Below the pieces are notes generated by a model. The model worked only from the letters and a program-made list of their open reading frames with translations, made no database searches and was not told the DNA's origin. Source: Candidatus Hermodarchaeota archaeon (GTDB lineage Archaea > Asgardarchaeota > Heimdallarchaeia > Hodarchaeales > Hodarchaeaceae). From it: DNA of 32,000 nucleotides. Positions 1 to 9,918 of the stretch are shown here, piece by piece. The stretch lies in NCBI GenBank assembly GCA_048886185.1, contig JBHLKY010000014.1, positions 1 through 32,000 on the forward strand. The letters run 5' to 3'. Positions within the stretch are counted from its first letter, which is position 1. Each line of letters begins with the position of its first letter. Position numbers and translations under genes: made by a program.

Positions 1-293
1 ATCAAATCCCCACTTGAGAATGTGATGTTGTACCCTTCAATTCGTATGGGATCATCAATTGTGCCATTGCCTGGATACCCCGAATTGTTTAGTTGAAAAT
101 CTGAAGTTATGGTTATTGGGCCATGTTCGATGTACGCTTGAGTGCTGGTTCCTTTTAGGGTAGGGTGAGCTATCATTTCATTCATGTGGTGTCTTTCTTT
201 CATGGATTGATGGTCATGTAGCCTTGCCTGATCATTCATTCCTATTAAAAGAAGAGCAAAAATCAAGATGAAGACTATTTTTTGTTTGGCTAT
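1..293 (-). CDS. Partial (runs off window edge) secreted or membrane-anchored NosD/CASH-like beta-helix protein, paralog of the 426..2168 gene; start ambiguous
   Basis: Not in the ORF track. Manual translation: IAKQKIVFILIFALLLIGMND...HGPITITSDFQLNNSGYPGNGTIDDPIRIEGYNITFSSGDL, which aligns with HDPILITSDSQFTELGFLGSGSMEDPYRIEGLEITATNGDL of the neighbour. An in-frame TGA lies just upstream of KKIAKQ, so the start is ATA(293), TTG(266), ATG(239), or GTG(303) with a 1-nt frameshift. Confidence 0.8.
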   Translation of the reverse strand, partial: MAKQKIVFILIFALLLIGMNDQARLHDHQSMKERHHMNEMIAHPTLKGTSTQAYIEHGPITITSDFQLNNSGYPGNGTIDDPIRIEGYNITFSSGDL

Positions 294-425
294 TTTCTTT
301 CACCTTCTAATAAGTGATCTGCGTGTTCTCCAGCTTGAAAGTTCTTATATTAGCAGTGTATTTTCCAATCTGGAAACTAGCCTTTTGCCTTTCAAGAACA
401 GTTGTGGATGTTTTTTTCATTCATT

Positions 426-2168
426 TCACATATAATAAGTGCCTTCTTTTTCTTTTAACCGTGTTATTGTGACTTTAAGTGTTTCTTTTAGGGTATACAG
501 CAAGTTAAATCCCTTTTGGGTGATGGTATAGTTTCTATAGCGGCCATCTCGAAGGACTTGGGATGATACATATGATTCGATATAATCTAGTTCCTTTAAT
601 TTCTTGATTTCTTTTGACAGAGTTGAGGCTGCGATATCTAAGCTTTGGGCTAATTTTGCTGGGTTGGTATCGCTTGGATCTTGATAAGCGATCTCAATCA
701 GTGTTAAGATGGTTCGCCATTTCATCCCTGACTGGAGGTCATTCTTTATATCAGAGGGAAAGAATTCGACCAGAGAGATCGGTTCAGCAGATTCTAAGAG
801 GGGGACTGTGATTGGTTGAGGTAGTACTCTTGTCTGTAGATTTTCAATTCCTACTACGAGTTTATCATAAATGGGTCTTATTCTCTCGATTTGTTCTGTT
901 GTATTTAATTCTGTAAAAGGTTCTTCTGACTCATCTTCATGTTTTTTCTCTCTTGACCTGAAGAGGTAATAACTTCCGCTGATGCTCCCTCCCAATGCTA
1001 CTAGAAGGATTCCAAGAAAGATTATAATCCCTAAATTATCGGGGGATTTTTGTGCATTCTCTATCGCATCAGGAGAATATTCTGCTAGTGGATATGGATC
1101 AGTATTATTGCTTTTGCCATCAAGTTGATACGACGTGTCTATGATCAAATCTTCATCCAGATCAAGAAGTGGCTGATCATCCCAATAATTATATTGAAAG
1201 ATATTATTGTTTCCGTCATCAACAGCTTGTGTTTCTCCTCCGTTATTTCCGGCAAAATTATTGAATTGGATTGAATTATCGTTTGAGCCTAGGGTGGCTA
1301 AGATCCCATACTCTTGATTGTCAGTAATATTATTGTAATTAAGCCTGTTTCTTGAGGCGTATTCTAGACGGATCCCATATTTTTGGTTCAGTTGGATGGT
1401 ATTATTTGTTATCGTGTTATCATGGGCCGAGTTTAGGAGATTAATCCCATAAATGCTTTTGAACAATTCATTTTCTGTTATCACGGTTTTGGAGGTATGA
1501 TCTAGGAGGATGTTGTTTTGAGTATGCTTTCCATCCTGATGGTCGTGAATGGAGTTATTACTAACTCTTATCGTCTGACTATTCTTTATGTGTATCCCAT
1601 TTCCATTATTTTTTTGGACAACATTAGATGTGATATTACTATTGATTACTCTCTCGAAAAATATCCCAAATTTATTGTTTAATGTGATGTTATTGTTTAT
1701 ACAAATAATTTCAGAGGTATTACTAACTCTTATTCCATCCTCACAATTACTGATTAGGTTTTTTTCTATTCTAGCGTGTTGAACATTTGAAAGGCGGATC
1801 CCTGATGATGCTGTGGTCGATCCATCCAGATAATTATTAATAATATGGAAAGTGACTGTTGTATTGTTGATTGATATTAAATCCCCGTTTGTTGCGGTGA
1901 TTTCGAGTCCTTCAATCCGATAGGGATCTTCCATACTCCCAGACCCTAAGAACCCGAGTTCTGTAAATTGGCTATCAGAGGTGATCAAAATGGGATCATG
2001 GGGAGTTTTTGTCTCAATTTTTCCTCTTTTTGTTTGTAATTCTTCCAATGGAATGACTGGATCACTAAGTTCACTAGTTTCCACCTTGATTCGGATATTT
2101 GTCTCATCACTTGTACCTATCATTATTATTATAATGAATATTGTGATTAACAGCTTATATTGACTCAA
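426..2168 (-). CDS. Membrane-anchored NosD-like right-handed beta-helix protein with a C-terminal cytoplasmic MarR-like winged helix
   Basis: TTG start; N-terminal hydrophobic signal (LLITIFIIIIMIG); Asn-rich beta-helix repeats (NNxIxxNxxxGI); NosD-type YWDD...DPYPL motif; TM LGIIIFLGILLVALGGSISGSYYLF followed by RSREKK; wHTH LAQSLDIAASTLSKEIKKLKELDYI...DGRYRNYTITQKG. Confidence 0.85.
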   Translation of the reverse strand: MSQYKLLITIFIIIIMIGTSDETNIRIKVETSELSDPVIPLEELQTKRGKIETKTPHDPILITSDSQFTELGFLGSGSMEDPYRIEGLEITATNGDLISINNTTVTFHIINNYLDGSTTASSGIRLSNVQHARIEKNLISNCEDGIRVSNTSEIICINNNITLNNKFGIFFERVINSNITSNVVQKNNGNGIHIKNSQTIRVSNNSIHDHQDGKHTQNNILLDHTSKTVITENELFKSIYGINLLNSAHDNTITNNTIQLNQKYGIRLEYASRNRLNYNNITDNQEYGILATLGSNDNSIQFNNFAGNNGGETQAVDDGNNNIFQYNYWDDQPLLDLDEDLIIDTSYQLDGKSNNTDPYPLAEYSPDAIENAQKSPDNLGIIIFLGILLVALGGSISGSYYLFRSREKKHEDESEEPFTELNTTEQIERIRPIYDKLVVGIENLQTRVLPQPITVPLLESAEPISLVEFFPSDIKNDLQSGMKWRTILTLIEIAYQDPSDTNPAKLAQSLDIAASTLSKEIKKLKELDYIESYVSSQVLRDGRYRNYTITQKGFNLLYTLKETLKVTITRLKEKEGTYYM

Positions 2169-2420: not shown

Positions 2421-3143
2421 ATGTCCTTTATTCTTCCGAAAGTATGGATGCTATTGAAGCACATTCCTCCCAAAACTACTCAAACATTTACAGATCTTGA
2501 GAAACATGGGTTTAATCCGAGAACCCTTTCGAAGTACTTACAAATCGCTCAAAAAAGCAATCTTTTAATAAAACAGGGACAAGCTTATCTGTTAACAGAG
2601 CTGGGAATCCTTTACACCCATCTTGTGCGTCAACTCGAGGAATTAACCTCTTTTCTAGACATTCTAGAGAAAATTCCTCGGAGAGAGATTCATTCTTTTT
2701 TGCAGATTCATGTTCCCCTCTTAAAGAGGTATTATTCTAACCGATTGAAGGGCATCGTGTTATTTGGGTCATCAGCTACGACTGCGTGGCGGCCTGACAG
2801 TGATATTGACCTCTTTATTGTGGTTCAGGATTGGAACATGCCTACGTGGGAGCGAGCCACTGAATTGTATAAAATTCGTCTTGCAACATTGGACTTAATA
2901 GAGGATGTCTTTGATCTTCCTGTGTCTTACTATCCCTTGGATCAGGTAGAAACAGGTAGGTTCCACGCCATTTATCCTGATATTCAACGAAATGGCATCA
3001 TTCTCTGGCAAGAGGAGGATTTCATGCTGAGATTGTTTGATTCCATCCGAGAGGGATTGAAACAAGAAGATAAAATCCATATCACAACTCCTGATGGTGA
3101 GTCGCTATGGATCGCTCAAAAAATAATGTCGAGAGATATTTGA
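2421..3143 (+). CDS. Minimal nucleotidyltransferase (MNT, MntA-like antitoxin) with an N-terminal winged helix
   Basis: LFGSSATTAWRPDSDIDL matches the GSx10DxD motif; N-terminal NPRTLSKYLQIAQKSNLL...YLLTELG resembles a wHTH; overlaps the downstream HEPN gene. Confidence 0.85.
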   Translation: MSFILPKVWMLLKHIPPKTTQTFTDLEKHGFNPRTLSKYLQIAQKSNLLIKQGQAYLLTELGILYTHLVRQLEELTSFLDILEKIPRREIHSFLQIHVPLLKRYYSNRLKGIVLFGSSATTAWRPDSDIDLFIVVQDWNMPTWERATELYKIRLATLDLIEDVFDLPVSYYPLDQVETGRFHAIYPDIQRNGIILWQEEDFMLRLFDSIREGLKQEDKIHITTPDGESLWIAQKIMSRDI

Positions 3144-3565
3144 GGATCGCCAAGAAAGCCCAACAACGAGCTGCTGATTGGGTTCGTAATGCTGAAGTGG
3201 CATTGGAAGAAAACCGCTGGAATGATGTTGTATACAGTGCCCAGACGGCTGCTGAACAGTCCTTGAAGAGTATTTTGCTTGCCTTAGGAGTTTCCTATAA
3301 GAAGGTTCATGATATTAGTGTCCCCTTTCGTTTACTGAGGAATGAGGAGATTCTCTCTGAGCAGTTTCGCACTCGAATCCCGATCTTTGCCGAATGGCTT
3401 ATTCAATTGACTCATGAAAGACATTTAGCGGGATATGGTTTTGAGGAGGATCTGGAAGAGGACTACTTCAAAGACTATGCGCCTCAAAGTCTGGATAAAT
3501 GCAAGGAGATTCATAAGACCTGTATACTAGAGCTTGACAGAATTTCGAAAAGGTTGTTCAACTAA
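3107..3565 (+). CDS. HEPN domain protein (COG2250-like), partner of the MNT
   Basis: Typical HEPN N-terminus (AEVALEENRWNDVVYSAQTAAEQSLKSIL), KVHDI motif, ERHLAGYG in place of the RY motif; 37-nt overlap with the MNT gene. Confidence 0.85.
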   Translation: MDRSKNNVERYLRIAKKAQQRAADWVRNAEVALEENRWNDVVYSAQTAAEQSLKSILLALGVSYKKVHDISVPFRLLRNEEILSEQFRTRIPIFAEWLIQLTHERHLAGYGFEEDLEEDYFKDYAPQSLDKCKEIHKTCILELDRISKRLFN

Positions 3566-8709: not shown

Positions 8710-9918
8710 TTGCGTATGTATAAGATAAGAAAGGGGGAAGAAAGGGACAGACATGCTGTAGTCGAAATGTTGAGTAGAGCATTAGGTGAACTAGAAACTT
8801 TTGAGGATTATTGGATTGATTCTTGGAGAGAATATTGGAATCGTCCTGAAAACGATGATTATGCGTATGTTGCAACTTATAACGACCATGTTGTTGCCAA
8901 TCTTGCTTTTTTTGTGAATGATGGCTTTAATTGTATAAGGGGAGGAGGCCTCAAATTTGGAGGAATCTGGGCAGTCGGGACTGAAGAAGCACATCGACGA
9001 AAAGGACTTCTTACACAATTGTTCTCAGAATCATTTCCAGCAATGAAGGAAAAAGGAGTTGTACTCTCAATCTTGGATCCTTCTCCTTATCATGGAGCTC
9101 AATTAGCTTATGAGAAGTCTGGCTATACACTTGCTGAAAAACGAGTAAAATATATTTTTCATCCTAGTACTCTACGGTTGACTAAAAGTGCTCAAAACAT
9201 AATATTTAGAAAATTGGAAGATTCTAGTGATTATCGTAAAATTTCTGAGCTTGAATTATCCATGAGTCGTTACGGTTCCCGAGTGTTCACTTGGCCATTA
9301 ATATTTCAACGTCAAATTGATTCTGGGCAGTTTTATGTATTCGATAGTGGTGGAAAAATAATTGCTTGTATTCGGATCACTCTTAGCAAGGAAAATGTCC
9401 TCAATATATCCTCGGCTTATTTTACTTCTTTAGATGTATTTCCAACTTTAATTAACTTCATTAAACAAAAATCCTCTGGACTAGAGCGGATTGAATGGGT
9501 TTGTGACCCACAAATTCCAATATGGAATTACCTTCAGAATATTTCCAGAGTTAATATTCAAAATAAAGGAACAATGATGATGAGGATTGTTGATTTTAGT
9601 GGATACTGTGATTCAATACGAGTAGCGGATGAAGTAGAAGATGAGGTCATATTAAGATTAGTGGATGACCAATGTCCTTGGAATGAAGGAATATACAGGC
9701 TCAATTCTTCAGAAGGGAAACTGGTAGCTGAAAAAATAGACATTAGAAAAGATTATGATATTGAACTCCTTCCGTTGCAGTTATCACAAATTACCTGTGG
9801 TTTAACTTCCTCAATGATACTCAGGGAACTTGGGGAGATCTCTTGTTCTCTTGAAACTGCGAAGAAGCTAGATTCAATGTTTCCAGCTGACTATTTCTTG
9901 TCATATTTCAGGTTTTAA
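8710..9918 (+). CDS. Eis-like GNAT acetyltransferase with a C-terminal SCP2-like domain
   Basis: VGTEEAHRRKGLLTQL acetyl-CoA motif, AYEKSGY, MMRIVDF, LRLVDDQCPWNEGIYRL, QLSQITCG. The real start may be ATG 8716. Confidence 0.85.
   Translation: MRMYKIRKGEERDRHAVVEMLSRALGELETFEDYWIDSWREYWNRPENDDYAYVATYNDHVVANLAFFVNDGFNCIRGGGLKFGGIWAVGTEEAHRRKGLLTQLFSESFPAMKEKGVVLSILDPSPYHGAQLAYEKSGYTLAEKRVKYIFHPSTLRLTKSAQNIIFRKLEDSSDYRKISELELSMSRYGSRVFTWPLIFQRQIDSGQFYVFDSGGKIIACIRITLSKENVLNISSAYFTSLDVFPTLINFIKQKSSGLERIEWVCDPQIPIWNYLQNISRVNIQNKGTMMMRIVDFSGYCDSIRVADEVEDEVILRLVDDQCPWNEGIYRLNSSEGKLVAEKIDIRKDYDIELLPLQLSQITCGLTSSMILRELGEISCSLETAKKLDSMFPADYFLSYFRF

Follow-up and report, generated by a model that had tools for sequence, protein, structure and literature searches.

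The first complete gene of contig JBHLKY010000014.1 (assembly GCA_048886185.1, Candidatus Hermodarchaeota archaeon, assigned to the Hodarchaeales) raises the question of whether a single archaeal polypeptide can be both a surface receptor and the transcription factor that responds to it. The first 32,000 nucleotides of this contig were analysed, and this stretch is referred to here as the window. The gene is one uninterrupted reading frame, and its product had been described in an initial annotation as a membrane-tethered one-component regulator. The present analysis supports that description: we consider it fairly probable that the protein, called the regulator below, is a type-I single-pass receptor and a transcription regulator in one (a transmembrane one-component system) and that it acts on the adjacent promoter. 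It is read in this way because its C-terminal region has a predicted MarR fold, because this module is obligately paired with a transmembrane (TM) segment across its family, and because a conserved palindrome is present at the neighbouring promoter.

The initial annotation saw a complete MarR-like winged helix-turn-helix (wHTH) in the C-terminal region, a claim that holds for the fold but not for family membership under curated thresholds. Residues 480-565 are matched by the Pfam models MarR_2, HTH_34, HTH_27, Fe_dep_repress, HTH_45 and MarR, in each case under the curated cut-off, and the NCBIfam matches to the regulator (FabT, AdcR and HpaR) likewise all fall below their curated thresholds. 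MarR_2 (PF12802) reaches 21.2-24.5 bits against a cut-off of 27, and MarR (PF01047) 15-19 bits against 24.6; only 17 of 75 family members reach an E-value of 1e-3 in the Pfam MarR test. Because the curated threshold test fails, the regulator is not filed here as a member of Pfam MarR. A profile built from 32 family members and compared with PDB chains recovers HsmR weakly (E 0.003), with MepR, FabT and PadR lower.

The part of the protein from the TM helix to the C-terminus was also modelled with AlphaFold2 (AF2), at a predicted local distance difference test (pLDDT) score of 74.5. The elements follow in the order TM helix, cytoplasmic helix, disordered Pro-rich loop, helix, helix-turn-helix (HTH), two-strand wing and long C-terminal helix, and this is the order of the MarR fold, in which a helix, a three-helix HTH and a wing of two strands are followed by a C-terminal helix packed against the first. 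Of the 50 best Foldseek matches to this model in the PDB, 49 are chains of the MarR family and one belongs to the ArsR family (CzrA). The MarR matches have probabilities of 0.99-1.00, E-values from 2e-4, TM-scores by target of 0.5-0.6 and 100-155 aligned columns; they include MepR, ZitR, AbfR, HpaR and FabT, and several are complexes with DNA. Conservation is concentrated in the same region. Mean identity is 75% in the MarR core, the most conserved part of the regulator, compared with 53% in the beta-helix. The wing motif D-x-R...I-T-x-K-G has invariant D541, R543 and G553 and nearly invariant T550 and K552 among 75 members, and the recognition helix, S-T-L-S-K-E-I-K, is nearly invariant across the 32-75 family members compared. 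Because of these fold matches and the invariant wing and recognition-helix positions, the C-terminal region is taken to be MarR-like in its modelled fold and very probably DNA-binding. A homodimer prediction for two cytoplasmic domains returned a score of 0.10, which gives no verdict and is used as evidence neither way.

Pfam, AF2 and hydropathy uphold the remainder of the architecture that had been proposed, namely a receptor-like beta-helix ectodomain, one TM helix, the basic stretch RSREKK and a cytoplasmic domain. The ectodomain is matched by NosD (E 1.4e-25) and Beta_helix (E 5.7e-22) over residues ~83-330, and AF2 models residues ~56-330 with pLDDT >90. The Foldseek neighbours of the ectodomain model are carbohydrate-active beta-helices: the alginate epimerases AlgE4 and AlgG, PL6 lyases, tailspikes and NosD. 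A hydropathy scan of the whole chain detects two hydrophobic segments only, at residues 1-25 and 379-403, the first of which is kept in orthologs whose N-terminus is complete. Because an N-terminal signal is combined with a TM helix that obeys the positive-inside rule, the regulator is predicted to be a type-I single-pass membrane protein whose beta-helix faces outwards and whose last 177 residues lie in the cytoplasm; the R/K column of the positive-inside patch is conserved in the family alignment (A1). The N-x-S/T sequons that the initial annotation had listed among its evidence are dropped as an indication of export. The ectodomain has 9, where its content of Asn, Ser and Thr predicts 8.1, a chance frequency for an Asn-rich domain, and they carry no weight because the observed count equals the compositional expectation.

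Two segments near the membrane are more distinctive than the proposed architecture implied. In the TM helix, a motif of small residues, S-x-[GS]-x-G-Y-x-x-Y, is conserved on the cytoplasmic side and followed by K/R, which is odd for a mere anchor and is compatible with helix-helix packing or with protease recognition. The region beyond it had been described as a linker of ~75 residues; the region is indeed present, but it is not a plain spacer, as it holds a conserved helix (residues 417-444) and a conserved Pro-rich loop (residues 445-465). The helix is likely to be the counterpart of the MarR N-terminal dimerisation helix.

The same domain order recurs in 24 full-length orthologs from independent assemblies, which share 43-64% identity and are collinear through the signal, beta-helix, TM and MarR-like parts; one of them sits in a closed 4.9-Mb genome. 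Four further paralogs (C2, C8, C31 and C52) are encoded in the regulator's own genome, and contigs from separate sediment runs bridge the beta-helix, TM and wHTH coding parts (431-1846 and 432-2600). An exhaustive profile search of 1.84 billion cluster representatives detected the TM-plus-MarR-like module in 148 clusters, 84 of them at E <1e-30. The module is C-terminal in every case, and a strongly hydrophobic segment lies directly upstream of it in 74 of the 79 longer cluster representatives. The ectodomains in front of it are exchangeable: beta-helices in 32 of 75 members, WD40 propellers in 5, ANF_receptor/Peripla_BP_6 ligand-binding domains in 3, and in the remainder small beta-sandwiches bearing an Asp-box or no recognisable domain. 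More distant matches have a C-terminal MarR-like domain behind a signal peptide and TM helix, or behind a domain with 6-8 TM helices. Proteins of the latter kind (P0188, P0194, P0198, P0202 and P0214, Hodarchaeales where named), in which a MarR-like C-terminus follows a polytopic domain, give this lineage another type of MarR-like protein embedded in the membrane.

The architecture census that the initial annotation had called for thus found a recurrent module, nearly confined to one family of Hodarchaeales. Family members with taxon names are all Heimdallarchaeia, mostly Hodarchaeales. Among 301 Asgard genomes, the module is present in 16 of the 20 from the window's own Hodarchaeales family, in 1-6 copies each, and in one of ~280 others, which belongs to a different family of the same class; it was found in none of the ~270 sampled Asgard genomes outside the Heimdallarchaeia. 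Orthologs at 47-64% identity do occur in metagenome-assembled genomes (MAGs) labelled Thor-, Odin-, Hermod- and Promethearchaeota (P0005, P0013, P0017, P0022 and P0025), and these labels are probably loose. A pan-Asgard distribution, as suggested by the names of the MAG records, is not borne out by the census of 301 genomes.

The third line of evidence lies between the regulator and the next gene. A palindrome follows the regulator's stop codon and precedes a TATA-like box; GGTGA and the start of the next gene lie ~40 nt beyond the box, and equivalent AT-rich boxes are present in orthologous loci. Scored against the consensus TAKTTTCC-N4/5-GGAAAMTA (maximum 16/16), the site in the window is the sole 16/16 match in the 4.84-Mb genome, in which 8 sites score at least 14/16. 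Among 1,557 intergenic segments used as background, 0.39% score at least 14 and 3.4% at least 13. The palindrome occurs at the same offset in two orthologous loci (L006 and L007), where the arms are conserved and the spacers differ. In three further loci fetched after the motif had been fixed (L036, L039 and L037), it lies 44-45 nt past the stop codon with a spacer of 5 and scores of 14, 14 and 13; the fourth locus of that set, L038, lacks it. A TATA-like box follows 6-10 nt after the palindrome in the orthologous loci, and then a Shine-Dalgarno (SD) sequence and start codon. Related sites also occur in the paralog groups of C31 and C52, each group with a conserved offset of its own. In a strain of ~96% identity, the 90-nt intergenic stretch differs by 9 substitutions, all of them outside the palindrome (P ~0.1); that the palindrome is spared from substitution is suggestive only. 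The palindrome could help to recruit or to occlude TFB/TBP, since the site abuts the expected TFB-recognition element (BRE).

Elsewhere in the genome, the second-best palindrome (15/16; G000 C56:2548-2568, L031) is located at the annotated start of an 832-residue signal-peptide protein that has no Pfam domain, possibly a further target. The other genomic sites scoring at least 14/16 are inside genes or beside unrelated genes, and no regulon can be defined from them. Look-alike sites upstream of the C31 and C52 paralogs score 11-12/16 and are not significant. A scan for sigma-70 promoters and intrinsic terminators gave nothing above shuffles and is unsuited to an archaeon.

The gene behind this promoter is a candidate target, and genes of its type recur in this position. 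The neighbours were read for 13 family loci. In 10 of them (the window, C31, C52, C8, L006, L007, L008, L010, L036 and L037), the regulator gene is next followed on its own strand by a gene or genes for larger signal-peptide proteins with a beta-helix or SBBP propeller; the C2 paralog, L009 and L038 have no such downstream neighbour. C31 and C52 are each followed by two tightly spaced beta-helix genes, and C8 by the gene for an SBBP protein. A C-terminal TM anchor was found in all six of the downstream proteins checked. At a paralogous locus, the regulator's ectodomain and the N-terminal part of the downstream protein are 28% identical (E 7e-29) and collinear from the signal peptide on. By this comparison the regulator's ectodomain appears to be a shorter paralog of the neighbouring surface protein, and because of that relationship the family looks like a surface protein whose C-terminal anchor gained a MarR domain.

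A mechanism may be proposed on this basis. The MarR-like domain, probably as a dimer, would bind the 21-bp palindrome TAKTTTCC-N5-GGAAAMTA upstream of the BRE/TATA region of the next gene, and would there control one or two larger, paralogous, surface-anchored beta-helix proteins. Dimerisation may occur via the small-residue motif of the TM helix, the juxtamembrane helix and the C-terminal helix. Since the ectodomain is a shorter paralog of the putative target proteins, the signal sensed would most likely be an extracellular polymer on which those proteins act, or the state of their assembly at the surface. The regulator would most likely work while anchored in the membrane, because the cell has no nuclear envelope and because the tether joins the MarR fold at its N-terminal helix. 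In the MepR-DNA and OhrR-DNA complexes, the MarR N-terminal helix is opposite the DNA-binding face.

Several points weigh against the regulator being such a membrane-tethered transcription factor. The wHTH scores are below threshold in both Pfam and NCBIfam, and DNA binding, the assignment of the operator and the direction of regulation are what we infer from sequence and models. The ortholog L038, the C2 paralog and most of the members whose ectodomains are of another type have no good palindrome site. Some of the loci in which the palindrome is counted had also served to define it, and the orthologous loci are not independent of one another; the site could also belong to another factor, or form a weak RNA hairpin where the regulator transcript ends. 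Upstream of the regulator gene itself there is no matching palindrome, the best score being 11/16, which is the background level. Finally, a flexible tether would not call for the degree of conservation seen in the Pro-rich loop, where processing or a partner protein may also be involved. Autoregulation by way of such a palindrome ahead of the regulator gene was also considered, and was rejected on that best score of 11/16.

The alternative that survives best, though we think it rather unlikely, is regulated proteolysis, following the logic of SREBP, Notch or RsgI, in which signal-triggered cleavage in or near the membrane frees a soluble MarR-like domain. The conservation of the Gly/Ser-rich, helix-destabilising cytoplasmic half of the TM helix and of the Pro-rich loop that joins the juxtamembrane helix to the MarR core would suit such a scheme, although a small-xxx-small motif is equally explicable by TM dimerisation. 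Metagenomes also contain a few short members or fragments that lack a TM helix. The co-occurring proteases that the initial annotation had suggested looking for are partly present: the genome encodes ~5 M50 site-2-type proteases and one rhomboid. However, their presence is uninformative because all 14 control genomes have both; neither type is encoded next to one of the five paralogs, the neighbourhoods share no recurrent protease, and the presenilin-like protease PF06550 was not found in this 96%-complete genome. Release would also be needless in a cell without a nuclear envelope. A fuller version, in which the family represents diversified Hodarchaeales type-I receptors whose MarR-like domain is freed at the Gly/Ser-rich TM half or the Pro-rich loop while the ectodomain reads the cell's own beta-helix coat or an external polysaccharide, is unlikely. 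If it were true, proteolytic release would constitute an archaeal pathway of the Notch/SREBP kind, in which receptor and transcription factor are one, within the lineage that stands closest to eukaryotes.

It is improbable, too, that the protein is not a transcription factor at all, and is instead a beta-helix surface enzyme or adhesin whose winged helix serves as a protein-interaction or anchoring module for a cytoplasmic partner. Winged helices serve protein interaction in ESCRT-II and in cullins, and Asgard archaea employ winged-helix domains in such non-DNA roles (ESCRT-II). The more distant beta-helix homologs are archaeal surface proteins of an ordinary type, which end in a TM helix and a short basic tail, and the family evidently derives from a protein of this kind; the sub-threshold wHTH scores point the same way. 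Against this, the fold match extends over whole MarR regulators with their flanking helices and is not confined to a generic winged helix, and the DNA-contacting D-x-R wing motif and recognition helix are the most invariant positions. A rare, conserved palindrome lies at the adjacent promoter, and the occurrence of the module behind ANF_receptor/Peripla_BP_6 sensors and 6-8-TM domains fits signalling better than anchoring.

That the fusion is an artefact of assembly or gene calling, joining a surface-protein gene to a separate MarR gene, was named from the outset as a condition to be checked and is already refuted, since the position of the window at a contig end is a general caution that found no further support, while the uninterrupted frame, the 24 collinear orthologs (one in the closed genome), the four further paralogs and the junction-spanning contigs from separate runs show the fusion to be real.

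The membrane-tethered regulator favoured here has precedents. Transmembrane transcription regulators (TTRs) form a recognised and widespread class, of which 1,384 have been counted in 367 archaeal species (Demey et al. 2023, PMC10269533). The regulator fits this class in its architecture, in that a predicted DNA-binding domain (MarR-like, residues 466-572) and at least one TM helix (residues 379-403) are combined in one polypeptide; as a TTR it would also regulate transcription while in the membrane. ArnR and ArnR1 of Sulfolobus acidocaldarius are characterised membrane-bound one-component regulators of cell-surface structures (PMC6396743); they are archaeal, and they show that archaeal transcription factors can work from the membrane. 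Because of ArnR/ArnR1 and the TTR census, the initial remark that no characterised archaeal example was known is too strong. ArnR nevertheless differs in having an N-terminal wHTH, C-terminal TM helices and no large ectodomain, and it belongs to another family and another phylum; the regulator has no match to the ArnR-type wHTH (PF22166) and shows the opposite domain order, and so is not of the ArnR type. Among bacterial systems, ToxR, TcpP and CadC resemble it in combining an extracytoplasmic sensor, a TM helix and a cytoplasmic winged helix in one chain, and ToxR/CadC and the regulator share a presumed direct control of nearby genes from the membrane. ToxR and CadC, however, are type-II proteins with an N-terminal OmpR-type wHTH, whereas the regulator is a type-I protein with a C-terminal MarR-like, presumably dimeric domain. 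There is no sequence relationship, and the absence of any Pfam match of the regulator to Trans_reg_C (OmpR-type) places it outside the ToxR/CadC type.

Soluble MarR regulators (MepR, ZitR, AbfR, HpaR, FabT and MexR) have the same fold and the same wing motif, D-x-R...[LI]-T-x-x-G, and BldR and ST1710 are archaeal examples of soluble MarR-family regulators. As with MarR-type operators, the candidate target is a palindrome of ~20 bp at a promoter. MarR proteins, however, are soluble, are ~140-150 residues long and bind small ligands at the dimer interface, whereas the domain described here is fused behind a TM helix and ectodomain, scores below threshold in Pfam and has a conserved Pro-rich insertion after the first helix. 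The RsgI anti-sigma factors of Clostridium thermocellum (PMC10328401) are single-pass proteins whose sensing domain is related to the polysaccharide-active proteins under their control, much as the regulator's ectodomain is paralogous to its putative targets; RsgI differs in being bacterial, in holding a sigma factor rather than DNA, in its opposite orientation and in signalling by autoproteolysis. Notch, like the regulator in the reading favoured here, is a type-I receptor with a cytoplasmic transcriptional effector, and the regulator's host lineage, the Hodarchaeales, is one of those known archaeal groups that stand nearest to eukaryotes. Notch, SREBP and ATF6 nonetheless need regulated proteolysis and nuclear import and have no MarR domain. 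A literature search found no paper on the regulator's family. What appears to be new, relative to known TTRs, is the combination of type-I topology, a large exchangeable ectodomain and a C-terminal MarR-like domain, largely restricted to Hodarchaeales, with an ectodomain that is a paralog of the putative targets.

Hardly any experimental work has addressed signal transduction in Asgard archaea, and this family offers a compact input-output device from the archaeal lineage nearest eukaryotes, in which ectodomain, TM helix, DNA-binding domain, candidate operator and promoter lie within ~2 kb. If the favoured reading is true, it would show how cells couple the composition or sensing of a surface coat to transcription, and it would mean that type-I designs in which the receptor equals the transcription factor exist outside eukaryotes. 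Domain-based censuses would then be overlooking such regulators, because the DNA-binding domain scores under family thresholds. The swappable ectodomains (beta-helix, WD40 and periplasmic-binding type) could be used as parts for synthetic sensors. The features of the locus are collected in Table 1.

Table 1. Features of the regulator gene and its downstream promoter region, in window coordinates
Feature	Position	Strand	Basis or remark
Regulator gene, 580 aa (P0001), TTG start	426..2168	-	Signal, beta-helix ectodomain, TM, cytoplasmic MarR-like domain
N-terminal hydrophobic segment, aa 1-25, predicted signal peptide or signal anchor	2094..2168	-	Hydropathy
Right-handed parallel beta-helix ectodomain, aa 56-362, carbohydrate-active-enzyme-like fold	1083..2003	-	Pfam, AF2, Foldseek
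Single TM helix, aa 379-403	960..1034	-	Hydropathy
Positive-inside patch R-S-R-E-K-K, aa 404-409	942..959	-	Directly after TM helix
Conserved cytoplasmic helix, aa 417-444	837..920	-	54% mean identity, invariant K and G
Conserved Pro-rich loop, aa 445-465, low model confidence	774..836	-	Alignment and AF2 model
MarR-like wHTH core and long C-terminal helix, aa 466-572	453..773	-	Pfam/NCBIfam (sub-threshold), AF2, Foldseek
21-bp palindrome TAGTTTCC-AGATT-GGAAAATA (minus strand), candidate operator	359..379	.	46 nt past regulator stop codon
TATA-like box TAATATAAG, putative promoter of next gene	344..352	-	6 nt downstream of palindrome; sequence
SD GGTGA of downstream gene	300-304	-	Sequence
Downstream paralogous beta-helix surface-protein gene, start only, cut by contig end	3..293	-	Full-length counterparts elsewhere

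The start of the downstream gene is unusual. Within window 266-304 there is no ATG, GTG or TTG start that would retain the signal peptide, and the first canonical start, TTG at 268-266, would truncate it. Six nucleotides after the SD sequence GGTGA stands an ATA (293-291), with ATT in L006 (about 9860-9900), and the orthologs L036, L037 and L039 have GTG exactly at the position of the window's ATA. The ATA at 291-293 is likely to be a near-cognate start codon.

At their other end, the downstream surface proteins pass from a stalk rich in Ser and Thr through a P-G-[MI]-T-like motif to a TM helix with a short basic tail behind it, as read in L032:3454-5850, L033:3557-5719, L006:9977-12424 and L037:3234-5555. 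These ends resemble sorting signals of the PGF-CTERM/archaeosortase type; the regulator's own TM region does not have the motif. Many family members, including L004 and L005 (C2 and C8 of the same genome), and downstream surface proteins also carry a membrane-proximal, beta-sandwich-like domain of ~100 residues with an Asp-box-like Y-S-x-D-x-G-x-x-W and no Pfam match.

Some other neighbours of the orthologous loci are not conserved between them. A SAVED-domain protein is encoded at L007:4207-5409, and small or TM-associated HTH proteins (HTH_20/HTH_5 and MarR_2/DUF7343) occur at L009:7940-8494 and at about 2040-2810 in L036 and L039. In the window, positions 2421-3565 on the plus strand, divergent from the regulator, hold a gene for a nucleotidyltransferase (NTP_transf_2/Polbeta, with an N-terminal wHTH-like extension) overlapping a HEPN gene, a pair that constitutes an MNT-HEPN toxin-antitoxin-like module.

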